The position numbers and the translations under genes are program-made. Positions 1,370 through 30,515 of a stretch of DNA of 40,500 nucleotides are shown in pieces. Origin of the DNA: Escherichia phage P151. The stretch lies in sequence record PP083182.1; one strand, given 5' to 3'. Under the pieces are notes generated by a model. That model worked only from the letters and a program-made list of their open reading frames with translations, searched no databases and was not told the DNA's origin. Positions within the stretch are counted from its first letter, which is position 1. Every line of letters begins with the position of its first letter.

Positions 1370-3484
1370 ATGTTACTATCCGACATCGAAGCAAACGGGT
1401 TGCTGCACAACGTTAGTCAATTTCACTGTGCGGTGACTTACGACTACACAACTGACCAGTACATCCGTTATCGACCTGATGACTTTGGGGCATATATTGA
1501 TGCTCTCGAAGCTGAGGTTGCTCGCGGTGGTCTCATTGTGTTTCACAACGGGCACAAGTATGACGTTCCGGTTATCGAGAAGCTGGCAAAGCTGATTCTT
1601 AATCGTGACGTTAAGTTCCCGAAAGAGAACGTATTGGACACCTTGGTGATGTCCCGACTGATTTACTCTAACATCAAAGACACCGATGCTGGTCTGCTCC
1701 GTGCTGGCAAGCTACCGGGTAGTCGCTTTGGGTCTCACGCTCTGGAAGCATGGGGCTACCGCTTAGGCGAAATGAAGGGTGAGTACAAGGACGACTTTAA
1801 GAAGTCACTGGAAGAGTCTGGTGATGAATACGAAGACGGGATGGAGTGGCTGTTCTTCAACGAAGACATGATGGAATATAACGTTCAAGACGTTGTAGTC
1901 ACCAAGGCACTCTTTGAGAAACTGTGTAGTAACACTTTCTATTTCCCTAACGAGACACCCGCTGGAAGCACAGAAGCAGACCGTTTCTGGAATGGTAGCA
2001 TTGAGGCTGTCAAACTGGAACATGATGCTGCATGGTTGTTAGCTAAGATGGAACGTAACGGTTTTCCTATTGACATCAAGTCCTTAGAGAACCTCTACGC
2101 TGAACTGGCTGGTCGCCGTGGTGAACTGCTGGTAGAACTAACCAACACTTTCGGCTCATGGTATCAGGCCAAGGGTGGCGTTGAAGCATTCCGTCATCCG
2201 AGAACTGGTAAGCCTCTCACTAAGTACCCTCGTGTGAAGTACCCGAAACAGGGTGGCATCTTTAAGAAGCCTAAGAACAAGAAGCAACGTGAAGGCTTAG
2301 AACCGTGTGAGTTGGATACCCGCGATTACGTTGAGGGTGCTCCGTATACTCCGGTTGAGCACGTTGTGTTTAACCCTGCGAGCCGAGACCACATCACTCG
2401 TGTGCTTACCAAAGCTGGCTGGGTGCCCGTTGAGTTCACTCCTAGTGGTGCGCCAAAGGTAGACGATGAGGTCTTAGAGCACGTTAAGGTAGACGACCCT
2501 GATGCACAACGTTGCATTGAGTTAATTAAAGAATACCTTATGATTCAGAAGCGTATCGGTCAGGTTGCTGAAGGTGATAACGGCTGGCTCCGAATGATTG
2601 GAGAGGATGGTCGTATTCACGGTAGCGTTAACCCGAACGGTGCGGTAACTGGACGCGCAACCCATAGTTTCCCTAACGTGGCACAGGTGCCTTCAATCCG
2701 TGCTGCTTATGGTGAACCTTGCCGTGCTGCTTTCGGTGCCGAGCACAACATGAAAGACGGTAAGCCAGACCCTTGGATTCAAGTTGGTGTGGATGCGTCC
2801 GGCCTTGAGCTACGCTGCTTGGGCCACTTCATGTATCGTTATGATGAGGGTGAGTACGTTGAGACCATCCTAACGGGTGACATTCATACGAAGAACCAAT
2901 TGGCTGCTGGTCTGCCGACTCGTGACAACGCTAAGACGTTTATCTATGGGTTCCTCTATGGTGCTGGTGCTGCGAAGATTGGACAGATTGTTGGTGGTAC
3001 TGCCGAAGATGGTAAGCGACTCATCAAGAACTTCCTTGAGCAAACTCCGGCTATCGCTGCGTTACGTGAAGCAATCACAGGGACACTCGTCAAGGACTCC
3101 AAGTGGGTTGGCGGTGAACAGAAAGTAACTTGGAAACGCCGTTGGGTTCGTGGCTTGGATGGTCGTAAAGTCCACGTCCGTAGTCCTCACGCTGCGTTGA
3201 ACACCTTGTTGCAGTCTGCTGGCGCTCTTATTTGTAAACTGTGGATTGTCAAGACAGAAGAGATGCTCCTTGAGATGGGCTACAAACATGGCTGGGATGG
3301 TGACTTCTGCCTCATGGGGTGGATACATGACGAGCAACAGCTTGCTTGCCGTACAGAAGAGATTGCCAAAGTTGTAATCGAAGTATCTCAACAGGCTATG
3401 CGCTGGGTAGGCGACCACTTTAACTTCCGGTGCCAATTAGATACTGAAGGAAAGATGGGTCCGAATTGGGCTGTATGTCACTAA
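1370..3484 (+). CDS. DNA polymerase gp5 (family A, 704 aa)
   Basis: Same length as T7 gp5; conserved blocks LIVFHNGHKYDVP (exonuclease), GSHALEAWGYRLGEMKGEYKDDFK, KTFIYGFLYGAG, HDE near C-terminus, ending GKMGPNWAVCH. Confidence 0.97.
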   Translation: MLLSDIEANGLLHNVSQFHCAVTYDYTTDQYIRYRPDDFGAYIDALEAEVARGGLIVFHNGHKYDVPVIEKLAKLILNRDVKFPKENVLDTLVMSRLIYSNIKDTDAGLLRAGKLPGSRFGSHALEAWGYRLGEMKGEYKDDFKKSLEESGDEYEDGMEWLFFNEDMMEYNVQDVVVTKALFEKLCSNTFYFPNETPAGSTEADRFWNGSIEAVKLEHDAAWLLAKMERNGFPIDIKSLENLYAELAGRRGELLVELTNTFGSWYQAKGGVEAFRHPRTGKPLTKYPRVKYPKQGGIFKKPKNKKQREGLEPCELDTRDYVEGAPYTPVEHVVFNPASRDHITRVLTKAGWVPVEFTPSGAPKVDDEVLEHVKVDDPDAQRCIELIKEYLMIQKRIGQVAEGDNGWLRMIGEDGRIHGSVNPNGAVTGRATHSFPNVAQVPSIRAAYGEPCRAAFGAEHNMKDGKPDPWIQVGVDASGLELRCLGHFMYRYDEGEYVETILTGDIHTKNQLAAGLPTRDNAKTFIYGFLYGAGAAKIGQIVGGTAEDGKRLIKNFLEQTPAIAALREAITGTLVKDSKWVGGEQKVTWKRRWVRGLDGRKVHVRSPHAALNTLLQSAGALICKLWIVKTEEMLLEMGYKHGWDGDFCLMGWIHDEQQLACRTEEIAKVVIEVSQQAMRWVGDHFNFRCQLDTEGKMGPNWAVCH

Positions 3485-3503
3485 TTAACAGGAGAAATAT
3501 ATC

Positions 3504-3797
3504 ATGGCTATTACTAAACGTTTTAAAGTATCATTCGAAATGACCGTAAAGGTTGACTCTGAGACTGAAGATATGCTGAAAGAACGTATCTTGGATTTGG
3601 CTCGTAGCATTCGTGATGGTGAGTCCGTGAGTGCACAGGACAAAGAGTTACTCGTGCAGGCTCTTACTCATGGTGCCGATGGTGTTGTTGCCTTTGCTGT
3701 TAAGCAGGGAGTTCGTAATGAAATCCGTGAGATGGGCATTGAGCACCACGGAGAGGGCATTAAGTTTGCACCAGCTACTATTCGTGAGGTGAAGTAA
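3504..3797 (+). CDS. gp5.5-like protein (97 aa)
   Basis: N-terminal M-A-(I/M)-TK-(R/K)-FKVSF and C-terminal ATxREV resemble T7 gp5.5; located directly after gene 5. Confidence 0.7.
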   Translation: MAITKRFKVSFEMTVKVDSETEDMLKERILDLARSIRDGESVSAQDKELLVQALTHGADGVVAFAVKQGVRNEIREMGIEHHGEGIKFAPATIREVK

Positions 3798-23737: not shown

Positions 23738-23778
23738 AATAACTCAAGGCCACTACATCTAGTGGTCTTTATGATATT
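23738..23778 (+). promoter_or_regulatory. RNase III-type processing hairpin (R18.5-like)
   Basis: AACTCAAGGCCACTA-CATC-TAGTGGTCTTTATGATAT inverted repeat between genes 18 and 18.5. Confidence 0.6.
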
Positions 23779-23832: not shown

Positions 23833-24279
23833 ATGCTCAAGAATTTAAAGAGCTACGCCATAATCGCTGCGTTTGCCTTGGGGATTACCCTTGCGTATAA
23901 CCACGGCTATGACAAAGCTAACACTAAATGGGAACAGGAGGTGCACAATGAGTACGTTAAGAAAGTTAAGGCGACTGAGGATAAACAAGCTGCTGTCAAC
24001 GAAATCTCACGACAATACCAAGAAGACCTTGCGGCGCTGGAAGGCAGCACTGATAGGGTCATTAATGATTTGCGTAACGATGGTAAGCGCTTGCGCGTCA
24101 AACTATCAGCCACCACACGAGAACTCCAAGATAACGGTGGATGCCTCGTTGATGGTCGAGCCGAACTTGACGAAGAGTTTAGTAAGCGTCTTATCGGAGT
24201 AACTCAAAGAGGGGATGCGTGGATTCGTGCGCTCCAAGATACAATCAAAGAAATGCAAACTAAGAAGGAGGCTAAGTAA
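23833..24279 (+). CDS. Inner-membrane spanin Rz (gp18.5, 148 aa)
   Basis: [37 protein letters not shown] match T7 gp18.5; N-terminal TM segment. Confidence 0.9.
23948..24202 (+). CDS. Outer-membrane lipoprotein spanin Rz1 (gp18.7, 84 aa), embedded in the +1 frame of Rz
   Basis: [11 protein letters not shown]...[18 protein letters not shown] (lipobox-like) ...[11 protein letters not shown] resembles T7 gp18.7; lies entirely within Rz. Confidence 0.8.
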   Translation: MSTLRKLRRLRINKLLSTKSHDNTKKTLRRWKAALIGSLMICVTMVSACASNYQPPHENSKITVDASLMVEPNLTKSLVSVLSE

Positions 24280-26039
24280 TGTCACAATCCCAAGAAGCTA
24301 AGAATGCGTTAATCATTGCGCAACTTAAGGGTGACTTCGTGGCCTTCCTGTTCGTCCTATGGAAGGCTCTTAACTTACCTAAACCAACCAAGTGTCAGAT
24401 TGATATGGCACGTACACTCGCTAACGGAGACCACAAGAAGTTTATCCTTCAGGCGTTCCGTGGTATTGGCAAGTCCTTTATCACCTGTTCGTTCGTTGTG
24501 TGGGTCTTATGGCGTGACCCTCAACTTAAGGTGCTCATCGTGTCTGCCTCTAAGGAACGTGCTGATGCTAACTCCATCTTCATCAAGAACATCATTGACC
24601 TGCTGCCATTCCTCGCTGAGTTAAAACCTCGACCGGGACAGCGTGACTCCGTGATTAGCTTCGACGTTGGATTAGCTAAACCAGACCACTCACCCTCTGT
24701 GAAGTCTGTAGGTATCACTGGTCAGTTGACTGGTAGCCGTGCTGACATCATCATTGCGGATGACGTTGAGGTTCCCGGTAATAGCTCTACGAGTTCTGCC
24801 CGTGAGAAGCTCTGGACGTTGGTAACTGAGTTTGCTGCATTGCTTAAGCCATTGCCCACCTCTCGTGTTATCTACCTTGGCACACCTCAAACCGAGATGA
24901 CGCTCTACAAGGAACTTGAAGATAACAAAGGGTACAGCACTGTAATCTGGCCTGCACAGTATCCACGTAATGACGCTGAGGCTCTCTACTATGGGGACCG
25001 CTTGGCTCCGATGCTTAAGGCTGAATACGATGAGGGCTTCGAGTTACTTCGTGGTCAACCTACTGACCCTATTCGATTCGACATGGATGACCTCCGTGAA
25101 CGTGAACTCGAATATGGCAAAGCTGGCTACACGCTTCAGTTCATGCTTAACCCGAACCTTAGTGATGCCGAGAAGTACCCGCTACGACTCCGTGACGCTA
25201 TCGTGTGCGCTGTGGACCCTGAACGTGCCCCATTGTCTTACCAGTGGTTGCCGAACCGTCAGAACCGCAATGAGGAACTCCCTAACGTTGGTCTGAAGGG
25301 TGATGACATCCATGCGTTCCATACGTGCTCTTCTCGTACCGCTGAGTATCAGTCTAAGATTCTGGTCATTGACCCAAGTGGTCGTGGTAAGGATGAGACC
25401 GGGTACGCAGTCCTCTACTCACTTAACGGTTATATCTACTTGATGGAAGTCGGTGGGTTCCGTGGTGGTTACGAAGATGCTACCCTAGAGAAGCTCGCTA
25501 AGAAGGCCAAGCAGTGGAAGGTACAGACAGTCGTTCACGAGTCCAACTTCGGTGACGGTATGTTCGGTAAGATTTTCTCTCCGATTCTCCTGAAGCACCA
25601 CAAGTGTGCCTTAGAGGAAATCCGTGCTAAAGGCATGAAGGAGATGCGAATCTGCGATACTATCGAGCCGTTGATGGGTGCGCACAAGCTGGTCATTCGT
25701 GATGAGGTTATCCGTGAAGACTATCAGACTGCTCGTGACCTTGATGGGAAACATGATGTTCGCTACAGTGCGTTCTATCAGATGACCCGTATGACCCGTG
25801 AGCGAGGCGCTGTGGCACACGATGACCGACTTGATGCTATCGCATTGGGTATCGAGTTCCTGCGTGAAGGGATGCTTGTGGACAGCCGTGTAGGTGAAGA
25901 AGAGATGACCCTTGAGTTCCTTGAACACCACATGGAGAAACAGACCATTGGTGGTGATGCTATCCATAGCTACGATGTTGGTGGCGTGGACATCTACTAC
26001 GAGGACGATGGAGACTCTAGCTGCTTCATTGAGTGGTAA
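24279..26039 (+). CDS. Terminase large subunit gp19 (586 aa)
   Basis: Same length as T7 gp19; [35 protein letters not shown] (Walker A-like), [30 protein letters not shown] conserved. Confidence 0.97.
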
Positions 26040-26308: not shown

Positions 26309-26464
26309 ATGCGATTACTATCCGTGCTTAAGACACTAGCAACGCATCGAGTGACCTATAAATTTCTCGTTGTACTTGCTGCTTCCATTGGTCTCGCATC
26401 TAGTGCTGAACACATCGGTGAACTGGAGACTCTGCTTTGTTCTCTACTCACTTGTGTTCCTTAG
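26309..26464 (+). CDS. gp19.5-like small membrane protein (51 aa)
   Basis: Hand-translated: MRLLSVLKTLATHRVTYKFLVVLAASIGLASSAEHIGELETLLCSLLTCVP; AAGGAGG RBS; HRVTY-(K/R)-FLVVL resembles T7 gp19.5. Confidence 0.7.
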   Translation: MRLLSVLKTLATHRVTYKFLVVLAASIGLASSAEHIGELETLLCSLLTCVP

Positions 26465-26549: not shown

Positions 26550-27045
26550 AGAGGTAGCCTTATGTATTCCTTAATGGTCTACAAGGTCTCTTAGGGTCTC
26601 TCACGTAGTCTCACCGCTATGCTCCCTGCGTAGCACCTTATGATAGAGCCTCTGTGGTTAACCTTATGAGATACTTGATGTACCCCTTTAAGAATCCTAC
26701 AGAAAAATCTGAGTGGGTATCTCATAGTTCATACACACCGAGTTCCCCCCTATGGCCTCCTTCAGTTCCACCCAAATAGTGCCACCCCTATGGTAACTTA
26801 TGGCTTACTTAATGTCAATCCTTATGTGAGACATTGAGTTAACTTTGGGATGACCACTAGATATGGTGTGTGGGGGACCTTATGACCACTATATGTAGTC
26901 CTCTCTGTGTCCCTATCTGTAAGTGACCATTGAGTATCACCTTATGTCATCACCTTATGTCATCACCTTGCTAGCCTTATGTTATCACCTTATGACCATT
27001 CCTATCCTTATGTTAACCTTCAGTCAGTGCCTTATGTTTATCAGT
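26550..27045. repeat. Array of about 14 short CCTTATG-type repeats spanning the probable physical genome ends / terminal repeat (collapsed)
   Basis: Motif recurs at irregular spacing; embedded TCTCAC..., CTCTCTGTGTCCCTATCTGT and CCCCTATGG resemble the T7 terminal repeat, where the short repeat is CCTAAAG. Confidence 0.6.
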
Positions 27046-27303: not shown

Positions 27304-27333
27304 TTGACATTGATAATGGCTCATGAGACTATA
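27304..27333 (+). promoter_or_regulatory. Host sigma70-type early promoter (A1-like)
   Basis: -35 TTGACA at 27304, 17-bp spacer, -10 region GACTAT/ACTATA; analogous to T7 A1 (TTGACT...GATACT). Confidence 0.6.
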
Positions 27334-27438: not shown

Positions 27439-27467
27439 TTGACTCAACGGTAACAAAGCAGTAAGCT
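27439..27467 (+). promoter_or_regulatory. Host sigma70-type early promoter (A2/A3-like)
   Basis: -35 TTGACT, 17-bp spacer, -10 TAAGCT. Confidence 0.55.
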
Positions 27468-27530: not shown

Positions 27531-27560
27531 TTGACAAGCAGTAAAGATAAGATGTAAACT
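27531..27560 (+). promoter_or_regulatory. Host sigma70-type early promoter (A2/A3-like)
   Basis: -35 TTGACA, 17-18 bp spacer, -10 GTAAAC/TAAACT. Confidence 0.5.
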
Positions 27561-27741
27561 GTACGGCATAACGTTCTTGTGAAGTCCCACACTGAAAGGG
27601 ACTCGGTGCTAACGAAACCTGCACTTAAAGTTCTTTAACAATATGGTCGTGTAATTCCCTTACTGCGAGACAGGTAGTCAAGAACTACGGGGATGACGTG
27701 AACGCACAAGCGTTTAACCAATGATAACGCCGACTGATAGC

Positions 27742-27795
27742 GATTAACTCAAGGGCGCACATTAAGTAACAACGTGTGCTCTTTATGATAATCAC
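27742..27795 (+). promoter_or_regulatory. RNase III-type processing hairpin (R0.3-like)
   Basis: GATTAACTCAAGGGCGCAC...GTGTGCTCTTTATGATAATCAC inverted repeat just upstream of the first early gene. Confidence 0.6.
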
Positions 27796-27821
27796 TAACA
27801 CACACATAATGAGGCACTATC

Positions 27822-28280
27822 ATGATTTACACTAATGAACCTGCAAACGTATTCTATGTACTGGTATCAGCGTTCCGCTCTAACCTCTGCGACGAAGTAA
27901 ATATGAGTCGTCATCGTCACATGGTTAACTCACTGCGTAATGCACCGCTTGAATACGGTAGCGTTGAGTCTACAGACTTGACTGGTTGTTATCGGGAGGC
28001 CATCGCAAGTGCACCGACTGAGGAACTGACCGTTCGTGTACGCTGTGCTAACAGAGCTCAAGCAATAGCGGTTGCACGTCTGGCGTGTAACGAGTTCGAC
28101 CAAGATTGTGTATTGGTCTATAAGTCACAGACGCACACGGCTGGCTTAGTGTACGCTCAAGGCATTACTGGCTATAAAGCTGAACGTCTGCCGGGTAGCT
28201 TCCAAGAAGTGCCTAAAGGCGCACCGCTTCAAGGTTGCTTCACGATTGATGAGTTCGGTCGCCGCTGGCAAGTACAGTAA
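27822..28280 (+). CDS. T3-type gene 0.3 protein: S-adenosylmethionine-degrading enzyme (SAMase/SAM lyase), anti-restriction (152 aa)
   Basis: Same length as T3 SAMase and, from memory, near-identical over MI-x-T-x-EPANVFYVLVSAFRSNLCDEVNMSRHRHMV...KGAPLQGCFTIDEFGRRWQVQ; not checked against a database. Confidence 0.7.
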   Translation: MIYTNEPANVFYVLVSAFRSNLCDEVNMSRHRHMVNSLRNAPLEYGSVESTDLTGCYREAIASAPTEELTVRVRCANRAQAIAVARLACNEFDQDCVLVYKSQTHTAGLVYAQGITGYKAERLPGSFQEVPKGAPLQGCFTIDEFGRRWQVQ

Positions 28281-28328
28281 GTGATAAACTCAAGGTCGCT
28301 CCATGCGAGTGGCCTTTATGATTATCAC
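28281..28328 (+). promoter_or_regulatory. RNase III-type processing hairpin
   Basis: GTGATAAACTCAAGGTCGCTC-CATGC-GAGTGGCCTTTATGATTATCAC; outer GTGATAA/TTATCAC and inner arms are inverted repeats. Confidence 0.65.
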
Positions 28329-28362
28329 TTTAACCTATACACACACTATGAGGTAACACACA

Positions 28363-28725
28363 ATGGCTATGTCTAACATGACTTATAACAACGTTTTCGA
28401 TCACGCTTACGAAATGCTGAAAGAAAATATCCGTTATGATGACATCCGTGACGCTGATGACCTGCAAGATGCAGTGCATATGGCGGCTGATAATGCTGTT
28501 CCGCACTATTACAGCGAAGTTTTCAGCATAATGGCAAGCGATGGCATTGACCTCGAGTTTGAGGACTCTGGTCTTATGCCGGACACCAAGGACGTAATTC
28601 GTATCCTGCAAGCGCGTATCTATGAGCAATTAACGATTGACCTCTGGGAGGACGCTGAGGACTTACTGAACGAGTATCTTGAGGAAGTCGAGGAGTCAGA
28701 AGACTACGAAGAGGATGGAGAGTAA
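28363..28725 (+). CDS. ocr: Ocr (T7 gp0.3), DNA-mimic inhibitor of type I restriction-modification (120 aa)
   Basis: [30 protein letters not shown]...HYY...[50 protein letters not shown] nearly identical to T7 Ocr; highly acidic. Confidence 0.93.
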
Positions 28726-28880
28726 TGGCTAACAATACCACGCAATATGGCCTGACCGCTCAAACTGTACTGTTTTATAGTGACATGGTACGCTGTGGCT
28801 TTGATTGGTTGCTCGCAATGGGACACCTTAAGGAACTGTACGAAAACAACAAGGCAATAGCCTTGGAGTCTGCTGAGTGA
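28725..28880 (+). CDS. gp0.4-like protein (51 aa; T7 gp0.4 inhibits FtsZ)
   Basis: Hand-translated: [51 protein letters not shown], resembling T7 gp0.4; ATG overlaps the ocr stop. Confidence 0.8.
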   Translation: MANNTTQYGLTAQTVLFYSDMVRCGFDWLLAMGHLKELYENNKAIALESAE

Positions 28881-28924
28881 TAGGCTCAAGGTCGCTCCTA
28901 GCGAGTGGCCTTCATGATTACCAC
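28877..28924 (+). promoter_or_regulatory. RNase III-type processing hairpin (R0.5-like)
   Basis: GTGATAGGCTCAAGGTCGCTC-CTAGC-GAGTGGCCTTCATGATTACCAC, near-duplicate of the hairpin at 28281..28328. Confidence 0.65.
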
Positions 28925-28948
28925 TTAACACGCTATAGGACTAATATC

Positions 28949-29149
28949 ATGAGTAAACTTCTGGCAACATCTAAAATCAAAGGCCAACACACTGTAACTC
29001 TGCGTGAGTACGAGCACGGTAAAATGGGGAGCACCTACGTTGTTCGGTACGGTAAACAAGTCACGCATTGGATGAACGAGGTTTTAGCGCAAGAAGAATA
29101 CCAAGCCTGCGTGAAGCACCAAGCAACATGTTCGGGCTGGAATGGCTGA
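28949..29149 (+). CDS. Hypothetical early protein (66 aa), gp0.5-like by position
   Basis: ATG after AGGA RBS immediately downstream of the RNase III hairpin; the ORF-track 28877 start would lie inside the hairpin. Confidence 0.5.
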   Translation: MSKLLATSKIKGQHTVTLREYEHGKMGSTYVVRYGKQVTHWMNEVLAQEEYQACVKHQATCSGWNG

Positions 29150-29182
29150 TAACGCTATTTGCACTCTATGAGGTAACACCAC

Positions 29183-29383
29183 ATGTTATATACACTTGTT
29201 GCACTCGTTTACACTCTAATCGCGCTGTACTTCCTTCGAGACTTCCGCAAGGGTCTCAAGGTACACAAAGCTAACTTCTCGCACCTAAAGTATGGCTTCC
29301 TGCCGCGCTTCACTGTCCGTGAACGCAATGGACGCTTTAAGGCTAACAAGGTGGGAATCTTTTACATCGCAACGCTCAAATAA
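29183..29383 (+). CDS. Hypothetical early membrane protein (66 aa), gp0.6-like by position
   Basis: GAGG RBS; hydrophobic N-terminal segment LYTLVALVYTLIALYFL. Confidence 0.5.
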   Translation: MLYTLVALVYTLIALYFLRDFRKGLKVHKANFSHLKYGFLPRFTVRERNGRFKANKVGIFYIATLK

Positions 29384-29417
29384 CATTAATCTTCTTTCTT
29401 AAATAGGACACAATCTA

Positions 29418-30515
29418 ATGAACTACACCGACATTCAGGCACGTCTGGCAATCATCAAGTCTCTTCCGATTAGCGACTTGGACAAGCGCCAGCCTCTTTT
29501 GGTCGAACTGGCTGCTGACATCGTGAACGGTGAAACATGTGACGGAAACGACACAAACGGGTCGCATTGTCTTGAGTATCACGACTGGTGGAACACCTTG
29601 GGCGCACTGATGCGTGATGCAGGTTTCCACATGTTAGGCAATGGTCACTTCAGTGCGGCCTACTCGCACGAATTGTTACCGGGTCGGGTCATTAAGGTTG
29701 GCTTTAAGAAAGAGGATTCAGGCGCTGCATACACTGCATTCTGTAGGATGCACCAAGGCCGAGCGGGTATCCCTAACGTCTATCACGTAGCACGTCATGC
29801 AGGTTGTTATACGGTCGTACTGGACCACTTAAAAAGCTGTGACGACGATAATGATGACCATGTGGCATACGCTGACCTCGCACGTTACTTTGTGGAGTCG
29901 GATTGCCATGATGCAAGCGACTTTGCACCGGGTGACTACGAGTTCATCGAAACGTGCAAGATGATTCGTGAATTCTTCAAAGGGATTGCATCTTTCGACA
30001 TGCACCGCGGGAACATTATGTTCGACGATAACGATGTTCCGTACATCACTGACCCGGTTAGTTTCTCACATGACCGTGAACGTGAGGACGGTTTGCCTCT
30101 GGACCCTGAAGAACTGCTGGCTGAGGTCGAGGCTGTAGCGCAAGAACGCATGATTGAACGTTGTCGCAACCGCAAGGCCAAGCGTGACCCTAATGGCACC
30201 TACTGGATGAACAAGAAGGCCAACATGAAACGCCGTAAGTGCAACCGTAAGTTACATGCTAAGGTGGCAGAACGTGACCGCTTACACTTTATGGCAATCC
30301 GCAGGGAACGCGGTGTGATTGAGCGCAACGAACGCCGTGCTGATATGCTCATGGGGTCGGCTTGGCATGACTTCTGGTTACGCAATGGTAACTCAACGAT
30401 CCGCAAGATTGACCAAGTGAACGGCCTTAAGTGGCAACTAGGGGACCACCTAGCAATACAAGCGGGTCTCCCTCTGAATATCGACAAGTTACTTGACGCT
30501 CAACTGATGGGCTGA
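29418..30515 (+). CDS. Ser/Thr protein kinase gp0.7 (host transcription shutoff), 365 aa
   Basis: LGNGHFSAAYSH-x-LLP-x-RVIKVGFKKEDSGAAYTAFCRM-x-QGR-x-GIPNVY and GIASFDMH-x-GNIMF...DVPYITDPVSFS match T7 gp0.7. Confidence 0.93.
   Translation: MNYTDIQARLAIIKSLPISDLDKRQPLLVELAADIVNGETCDGNDTNGSHCLEYHDWWNTLGALMRDAGFHMLGNGHFSAAYSHELLPGRVIKVGFKKEDSGAAYTAFCRMHQGRAGIPNVYHVARHAGCYTVVLDHLKSCDDDNDDHVAYADLARYFVESDCHDASDFAPGDYEFIETCKMIREFFKGIASFDMHRGNIMFDDNDVPYITDPVSFSHDREREDGLPLDPEELLAEVEAVAQERMIERCRNRKAKRDPNGTYWMNKKANMKRRKCNRKLHAKVAERDRLHFMAIRRERGVIERNERRADMLMGSAWHDFWLRNGNSTIRKIDQVNGLKWQLGDHLAIQAGLPLNIDKLLDAQLMG

Follow-up and report, generated by a model that had tools for sequence, protein, structure and literature searches.

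A preliminary description of the leading region of Escherichia phage P151, made from the sequence alone, placed a T3-type SAM-degrading enzyme directly upstream of a T7-type Ocr DNA mimic, and read the tandem as a double layer against host restriction-modification (R-M) that arose by recombination between lineages. The locus raises the question of whether the two genes are what they seem to be, whether they truly lie side by side in one genome, how they came together and what a phage may gain from carrying both. The window analyzed here is a stretch of 40,500 nucleotides (sequence record PP083182.1), and P151 positions are counted from its first letter.

The P151 record is, judged by its alignments, a circularly permuted Berlinvirus-like T7-group genome with the physical left end near 26720, the position at which nucleotide 1 of phage pO103 aligns. 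Positions 1-25000 showed up to 95 % identity to Berlinvirus-type phages, of which WW1 was the closest. The genome is a public annotated record in which Ocr is labelled 'Ocr-like anti-restriction', and no paper on phage P151 was found in the literature searched. Three putative TTGAC(A/T) promoters precede the SAM lyase gene, whose start lies approximately 1.1 kb in from the left end of the physical genome. When the open reading frame (ORF) listing was combined with direct reading of the sequence, a compact plus-strand block was observed, consisting of a hairpin, a 152-codon ORF, a second hairpin, a 28-nt leader, a 120-codon ORF, a 51-codon ORF and a third hairpin. The two longer ORFs occupy 27822-28280 and 28363-28725, exactly as first described. 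The features of the locus are as follows.

27304-27332, plus strand: putative early promoter 1 (A1/A2/A3 equivalents), sigma-70-type, TTGACA(17)GACTAT, read directly from the sequence.
27439-27467, plus strand: putative early promoter 2 (A1/A2/A3 equivalents), sigma-70-type, TTGACT(17)TAAGCT, read directly from the sequence.
27531-27560, plus strand: putative early promoter 3 (A1/A2/A3 equivalents), sigma-70-type, TTGACA(18)TAAACT, from the consensus scan.
27741-27795, plus strand: hairpin preceding the SAM lyase gene, equivalent to R0.3, a Berlinvirus variant with a longer apical part (fold, homology).
27822-28280, plus strand: predicted SAM lyase gene ('SAMase', T3 gp0.3 type), 152 aa (PF23780, T3 7OCK/8BB1, conserved residues, dN/dS).
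28280-28332, plus strand: intergenic hairpin between the SAM lyase gene and ocr, equivalent of T3 R0.5 and phiYeO3-12 R0.45 and left copy of a 51-nt direct repeat (fold, repeat D1).
28335-28362, plus strand: ocr translation leader CCTATACACACACTATGAGGTAACACACA with Shine-Dalgarno GAGG (junction alignment; matches WW2, EG1 and T7).
28363-28725, plus strand: predicted ocr gene (T7 gp0.3-type DNA mimic), 120 aa (PF08684, 1S7Z, acidity, dN/dS).
28725-28880, plus strand: gene 0.4 homologue, 51 aa, with a start codon overlapping the ocr stop (TAATG).
28876-28929, plus strand: hairpin after gene 0.4, T7 R0.5 equivalent and right copy of the direct repeat (fold, repeat D1, homology).

The promoter consensus scan as a whole showed no enrichment over shuffles, so the three promoters were assigned from their position and by analogy with the annotated T7 and phiYeO3-12 promoters. 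Antisense ORFs (e.g. 28330-28629, minus strand, 99 aa) were discounted, as they lie wholly within strongly supported plus-strand genes and the genome's genes are all on one strand. Downstream of the third hairpin lie small ORFs followed by a 365-aa protein (29418-30515), and the exact protein is named serine/threonine kinase in a public record.

The product of the upstream gene matched the Pfam family S-AdoMet_lyase (PF23780) with an E-value of 4.6 × 10−41 and 140 bits (cutoff 28), and matched the T3 SAM lyase chains 7OCK/8BB1 over its full length (residues 1-152) with 88 % identity and an E-value of 1.8 × 10−89. The T3-type SAM-degrading enzyme first proposed for 27822-28280 is thus borne out, and the lack of similarity to the SAMase/SAM lyase family that would have spoken against it was not observed. 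Mutagenesis of the T3 enzyme identified E68, Q94 and D95 as conserved active-site residues, and its MetK-binding surface consists of the N-terminus (I2, T4 and K5) and the beta4-beta5 loop (Q103/T104); the triple mutant I2A/T4S/K5S lost MetK binding (bioRxiv 10.1101/2023.02.27.530186). When the P151 protein was aligned to the T3 enzyme, all three catalytic residues were identical and the MetK-contact residues I2, T4, Q103 and T104 were unchanged, with substitutions of F3 to Y and K5 to N. The pO103 SAMase protein is 100 % identical to that of P151, and the two genes differ by two synonymous changes only. The dN/dS of the SAM lyase gene was 0.06-0.13 (Nei-Gojobori). The product of 27822-28280 is a predicted SAM lyase and an ordinary member of the known family.

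The product of 28363-28725 matched the Pfam ocr family (PF08684) with an E-value of 1.4 × 10−61 and 205.7 bits (cutoff 25), and the T7 Ocr structure 1S7Z with an E-value of 7.7 × 10−67 and 92 % amino acid identity, which agrees with the T7-type Ocr originally named at this position. It contains 35 D+E and 6 K+R residues (pI 4.05), compared with 34 and 6 in T7 Ocr, and given the 92 % identity the acidic residues are probably arranged in the same DNA-mimicking spatial layout. This protein had been called nearly T7-identical; that holds approximately for the amino acid sequence but was an overstatement for the gene, as the DNA is only 86 % identical. The closest relatives are other Berlinvirus/Teseptimavirus isolates (A7 with 95 % amino acid identity; EG1 and WW2 with 93-94 % nucleotide identity), and the exact P151 Ocr sequence was absent from the gene-position records that were looked up. 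The dN/dS of ocr was 0.06-0.20 (Nei-Gojobori). This product is likewise an ordinary member of a known family, a predicted Ocr.

The 28-nt ocr leader ends in GAGGTAACACACA. In the junction alignment it matched the sequence upstream of ocr in WW2, EG1 and T7, and matched neither pO103 nor phiYeO3-12. The gene 0.4 product was 82 % identical to T7 gp0.4 and 96 % identical to the P694 and EG1 proteins (tblastn), and its homologue in L038 has a precomputed Pfam match to PF26807 (Phage_T7_GP04).

The preliminary description had listed two hairpins (27742..27795 and 28281..28328), and both proved to be real. The folding energy was -18.6 kcal/mol (z = -4.15) for the region 27735-27800 and -22.9 kcal/mol (z = -5.75) for the region 28278-28335; for each of them, none of 200 shuffles folded as well. 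A third hairpin of the same family (28876-28929; -20.4 kcal/mol, z = -2.82 against dinucleotide shuffles), which the first reading had not used, closes the ocr-0.4 cassette and is near-identical to T7 1427-1483. The sequence type of the first hairpin is also found in P694, pO103 and WW1, the core of the second is identical to the phiYeO3-12 R0.45 and pO103 sites, and the second and third form repeat D1, in which the copy at 28280-28332 is 88 % identical to the copy at 28876-28926. The P151 hairpins align with the annotated RNase III sites R0.3 (822-875) and R0.5 (1359-1408) of T3 (AJ318471) and R0.3 and R0.45 of phiYeO3-12 (AJ251805); the phiYeO3-12 sites are annotated as 'putative' only.

Across the aligned sites the hairpin cores CTCAAGG...CCTTTATGAT were invariant. 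When 14 diverse copies from P151 and related loci were folded with RNAalifold, the consensus had a lower stem of 8 pairs and an upper stem of 10 pairs, separated by an internal loop, with compensatory changes at seven of the 18 pairs. In each of the 12 reference loci covered by a motif scan, these hairpins were located between the early genes. No Rfam match was found in P151 26500-31000 (E-value-mode scan), and the hairpins have no curated family there. They are predicted T7-group RNase III processing sites, with cleavage suggested by homology to the annotated sites. The order first described for the locus, SAM lyase gene before ocr with a processing hairpin ahead of each, is therefore retained.

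As both hairpins of the direct repeat are of a kind common to many co-occurring T7-like phages, and assemblers can switch templates in such repeats of about 50 nt, the locus could in principle be a chimera in which reads of a SAMase phage and an Ocr phage were joined at the common hairpin. We consider this extremely improbable. The cultured isolate P694 has a collinear architecture with 93.4 % identity over 27567-29373, and contigs from five different samples (SRR13801624, SRR13089945, SRR20950772, SRR13089955 and ERZ4239850) span 28280-28363 at 94-97 % identity. P694 and these contigs differ from P151 by 3-6 % in sequence, and they must thus be independent genomes rather than assemblies of the same reads. 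The mis-assembly named earlier as a possible objection, with nothing spanning 28280-28363, is therefore answered by five independent assemblies.

To find how often the two genes occur together, a SAMase-Ocr fusion was used as a tblastn query against 50,697 phage records. A total of 1,043 records contained either gene. Coverage of the fusion reached 80 % or more in 14 of them and was 79 % in two further Ebrios records. These 16 paired records represent approximately 10 distinct phages, and pairing was observed in about 1.5 % of carriers (16/1,043). The double carriers are listed below.

P694 (Escherichia phage, Berlinvirus): SAMase, ocr and gene 0.4, with the order and junction sequence of P151.
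vB_ShiP-A7 (Shigella phage, Berlinvirus): reversed order, ocr before SAMase, without gene 0.4.
AV103 (Escherichia phage, Teseptimavirus): both genes, with another hairpin and leader at the junction.
vB_SAg-RPN15 (Salmonella phage, Teetrevirus): both genes.
IME15, Ebrios, avDM11-UST, KFSA9 and PZL-Ah1: both genes, separated by gene 0.6A; the Ocr-like protein is divergent (174 aa).
IME278: both genes.

The adjacency of SAMase and ocr thus spans Berlinvirus, Teseptimavirus and Teetrevirus, with differing junctions. Comparison with the early regions of related phages had been proposed at the outset, and the arrangement does recur, in about 10 deposited phages of three Studiervirinae genera, one of them in reverse. 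A look-up of the exact SAMase sequence also revealed the SAMase-ocr-0.4 layout in contigs of five further samples. When IMG/VR was scanned with Ocr, 25 loci were found, in which SAMase was present only in the isolates A7 and P694, and there were no new metagenomic double carriers. The tandem pairing is rare but recurrent, and it is already known in the sense that it is deposited and annotated, the P151 record included. No discussion of Ocr and SAMase co-occurrence was found in the literature searched; the A7 genome paper merely lists both ORFs. In several genome papers the two gp0.3 proteins are described as if they were one. In addition, the pair is hidden by annotation noise, since the SAM lyase appears as 'SAM-dependent methyltransferase' in RefSeq and Ocr as 'protein kinase' in several GenBank records.

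The origin of the tandem was approached by aligning P151 to the SAMase-only Berlinvirus pO103. The pO103 sequence matched P151 27722-28334 at 98.9 % and then resumed at 28876-29381, the collinear flanks being 98.9 % and 89.5 % identical. Its single hairpin (1543-1597) aligned to both 28280-28334 and 28876-28930 of P151, which are 596 bp apart. The segment present in P151 and absent from pO103 is as follows.

28335-28930, plus strand: 596-bp segment comprising the leader, ocr, gene 0.4 and one hairpin copy (alignment to pO103).

Direct repeats of a 51-nt hairpin on both sides of a 596-bp insertion are what is expected when a cassette is inserted by homologous recombination. The junction alignment placed the crossover within the hairpin: the sequence is of the R0.45 type as far as CACTTTAA, as in pO103 and phiYeO3-12, and from CCTATACACACACTATGAGGTAACAC on it is the ocr leader as in WW2 and EG1. 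We propose that a T7-type cassette (leader, ocr, gene 0.4 and hairpin) entered a SAMase-only, pO103-like backbone, and that insertion would have proceeded by homologous recombination in the conserved hairpin of about 51 nt, leaving a direct repeat on either side. The crossover junction of P151 is common to P694. The different hairpin and leader of AV103 and the opposite gene order of A7 point to separate joining events. Genes may also be lost from such an array: WW1, the closest whole-genome relative of P151, has the order hairpin, 0.4, hairpin, 0.45, hairpin, SAMase, and its gene 0.4 without ocr indicates that ocr can be lost.

A direct hybrid of T3 and T7 was ruled out. The identity of P151 to phiYeO3-12 is about 80 % in the SAMase gene, and that to T7 is 86 % in ocr-0.4; both segments are nearest to phages of the Berlinvirus pool, the SAMase gene to pO103 and the ocr cassette to EG1-, WW2- and HZ2R8-type phages. 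The suggestion of recombination between lineages at the leading end of the genome is consequently upheld as to a recombinational origin, but the partners are relatives from the Berlinvirus pool and not T3 and T7 themselves.

A wider role of the hairpins in such exchanges was also considered. Of 120 long-alignment endpoints in the region 27700-29400 (42 loci), 48 were located within 10 nt of a hairpin, compared with 13 % expected; this clustering is descriptive only, since the loci share ancestry and the endpoints are biased by conserved islands lying between unrelated genes. The remaining endpoints were mostly at adjacent leaders and other gene boundaries. It is conceivable, at somewhat less than even chances in our estimation, that the RNase III sites of T7-group phages have two roles, separating the RNA messages and serving as portable DNA homology 'joints' for early-operon cassettes. 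If so, co-infection would allow hairpin-leader-gene units to be gained, lost, rearranged or stacked, which would account for the SAMase-only, ocr-only, SAMase-ocr, ocr-SAMase and 0.4-0.45-SAMase layouts among close relatives. T7-group phages would then have a built-in means to combine anti-defence genes, analogous to the T4-type PeSLs. No relevant account of recombination at RNase III sites in the early regions of T7-like phages was found in the literature searched, and the modestly new element of this analysis is that these sites appear to serve as cassette joints.

What the pair may do in P151 can be approached from each protein's action in the phage that carries it alone. By cleaving SAM and binding MetK, the T3 SAM lyase defeats Type I R-M and BREX (PMC12707154; bioRxiv 10.1101/2023.02.27.530186). 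T7 Ocr, which is made before the whole genome is inside the cell, binds the Type I methyltransferase core and BREX BrxX/PglX, and Type III enzymes are reported to be unaffected by it (PMC12707154). In P151, the operon would be transcribed by host RNA polymerase, starting at the A-type promoters, while the leading end is entering the cell. Cleavage by RNase III at the three hairpins would release each unit, with its own ribosome-binding leader, as a separate mRNA, and both proteins would be made in the first minutes. The SAM lyase would then remove SAM by cleavage and MetK binding, starving defences that need SAM, Type I R-M and BREX among them, and Ocr dimers would fill the sites at which Type I R-M methyltransferase cores and BREX BrxX/PglX bind DNA. 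SAM-dependent and DNA-tracking defences would in this way be hit simultaneously, through cofactor removal and active-site occupation. The double layer that was initially proposed against R-M, extended here to BREX, is plausible on these grounds, by extension from the lone action of each protein in T3 or T7, and the SAM lyase may widen the cover to SAM-dependent systems untouched by Ocr. We think it likely that the locus is a tandem early-operon pair that arose from hairpin-mediated cassette insertion and attacks the same defences by two independent mechanisms, although the substitution of K5 in the MetK-binding N-terminus and the overlap in targets count against this reading.

The tandem might instead be a transient by-product of cassette shuffling, in which one gene is superfluous and awaits loss and there is no real double layer. 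The pairing is indeed rare (16 of 1,043 records with either gene), WW1 as the closest whole-genome relative has gene 0.4 without ocr, and both proteins are known to act on Type I R-M and BREX. However, the ORFs are intact and both genes are under purifying selection (dN/dS 0.06-0.20, Nei-Gojobori, double-carrier comparisons included), even where the double carriers compared are separated by a dS of 0.11-0.23. Moreover, the pair arose or persists in three genera with differing junctions and orders, five more independent samples carry it, and the reported inactivity of Ocr on Type III enzymes leaves room for non-overlapping cover. We therefore regard a superfluous gene as unlikely, and the rarity of the pairing fits a weak or conditional advantage.

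Another reason for keeping both genes could be protection against counter-counter-defences. The PARIS abortive-infection system is triggered by T7 Ocr, with Ocr F54V as the escape mutation (PMC12707154). As F54 is kept in the P151 protein, P151 Ocr is expected to stay a PARIS trigger. If PARIS forced the mutation or loss of ocr, the SAM lyase would keep the anti-R-M and anti-BREX cover, and WW1 would be an example of an ocr-less derivative that still has SAMase. This argument is purely inferential, and a trigger-competent Ocr would still bring about PARIS abortion with or without SAMase. We give it very little weight as the main reason for which the pair is kept, more than we give to the assembly chimera and less than to a tandem awaiting loss. 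Attack on the same defences by two mechanisms, after insertion of the ocr cassette at a hairpin, remains the preferred reading.

P151 is a natural example of a T7-like phage with two mechanistically different anti-restriction/anti-BREX proteins. The practical value is modest and concerns host-range prediction and the engineering of therapeutic phages. Natural variants with SAMase only, ocr only or both genes in either order exist on backbones of about 90-95 % identity, and could be used to examine whether the two proteins are redundant, additive or complementary. Should the role proposed for the hairpins hold, RNA-processing sites would supply the homology for shuffling early anti-defence cassettes in T7-group phages.

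When compared with T3 gp0.3, the P151 SAM lyase has the same length (152 aa), 88 % identity, the catalytic residues E68, Q94 and D95 and most of the MetK-contact residues. In both phages its gene is the first of the early operon and lies between R0.3- and R0.5-type RNase III sites. The P151 enzyme differs by F3Y and K5N in the MetK-binding N-terminus, and it is nearest to that of the Berlinvirus pO103 (100 % amino acid identity) and not to T3. The next gene is ocr in P151, whereas it is gene 0.6 in T3.

Similarly, P151 Ocr shares with T7 gp0.3 92 % amino acid identity, an equally extreme acidity and F54. Both phages have the leader GAGGTAACAC and an overlapping ocr-0.4 pair followed by an R0.5-type hairpin. 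In contrast to T7, where ocr is the first gene of the operon, it is the second in P151; the acidic C-terminal tail of the P151 protein is three residues longer, and the DNA identity between the two genes is merely 86 %. At the leading end of the other public double carriers, as in P151, a SAM lyase gene and a gene of the Ocr family lie within about 1 kb; in most cases RNase III-type hairpins separate them.

A further parallel is found in the PeSL cassettes of T4-type phages, with which the P151 repeats have no sequence in common. According to two reports (PMC2839356, PMC4122927), short conserved intergenic motifs are repeated between small accessory genes there and supply the homology for modular insertion, deletion and shuffling. 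The likeness is one of analogy: PeSLs consist of a promoter and a stem-loop (terminator) and are located in T4-type hyperplastic regions, whereas the repeats of P151 are predicted RNase III sites within one early operon.

The window (1-40500) is identical in extent to the complete Escherichia phage P151 record (40,500 bp), whose numbering is a circular permutation of the one conventional for T7. When nucleotides 1-330 of pO103, a Berlinvirus with the SAM lyase (SAMase) gene but no ocr, were aligned to the window, they matched 26720-27041, placing the left end near 26720, and a gp19.5-like stretch was observed at 26344-26455. Therefore, the physical ends and the terminal repeat lie inside the P151 record.

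A 25-nt leader (CTAT..AC.CTATGAGGTAACAC) is present twice in the window, and the two copies are 84% identical. The copy at 28335-28359 precedes ocr and that at 29155-29179 precedes an ORF starting at 29183. The endpoints of long alignments to the comparison loci cluster at the second copy as well (29140-29169), and thus recombination may also take place at conserved leaders that carry ribosome-binding sites. The core of the early hairpins recurs in the late region, directly before two ORFs (23833-24279 and 24279-26039):

23743-23775, + strand, fourth hairpin, with the CTCAAGG...TCTTTATGAT core of the early hairpins

This hairpin probably serves as an RNase III site of the late region.

The T3 record annotates gene 0.3B as an in-frame internal start at Met28 within the SAMase gene, and places an E. 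coli 'B' promoter close to the gene's 3' end. When the T3 protein was aligned with the SAM lyase of the window, Met28 was found to be kept (context NMSRHRH); the corresponding region is 27903-28280.

The pairing of SAMase and ocr is hidden in public records by wrong names. SAM lyase is named 'SAM-dependent methyltransferase' in RefSeq. In GenBank, the entries for P694, CICC 80001 and Salmonella phage C2 call Ocr 'protein kinase', as does the UniRef name of the Ocr protein of Salmonella phage 3A_8767.

Further features were observed in related phages and contigs:

L004 (IME15), 1673-2194, gene for a 174-aa 'ocr-like' protein
L005 (Ebrios), 1670-2194, gene for the 174-aa 'ocr-like' protein
L045 and L047, 255-626, HNH_3 (PF13392) endonuclease gene, upstream of the SAM lyase gene

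The last two are SAMase-only relatives (Logan ERR13865442 and ERR13865447, respectively), in which the HNH_3 gene occupies a region where normally only early promoters are found. In the group formed by IME15, Ebrios and Aeromonas phages, SAMase is accompanied by the 174-aa protein, a putative DNA mimic that shares just 46-56% identity with the Ocr of the window across 82-98 residues and has extra sequence.

The nearest whole-genome relative of the window is Yersinia phage vB_YenP_WW1 (95%), whose early region lacks ocr and is ordered as follows:

L010 (WW1), 2570-3664, hairpin, gene 0.4, hairpin, 0.45-like gene, hairpin, SAMase

This layout is another permutation of the cassettes, in which gene 0.4 is parted from ocr.
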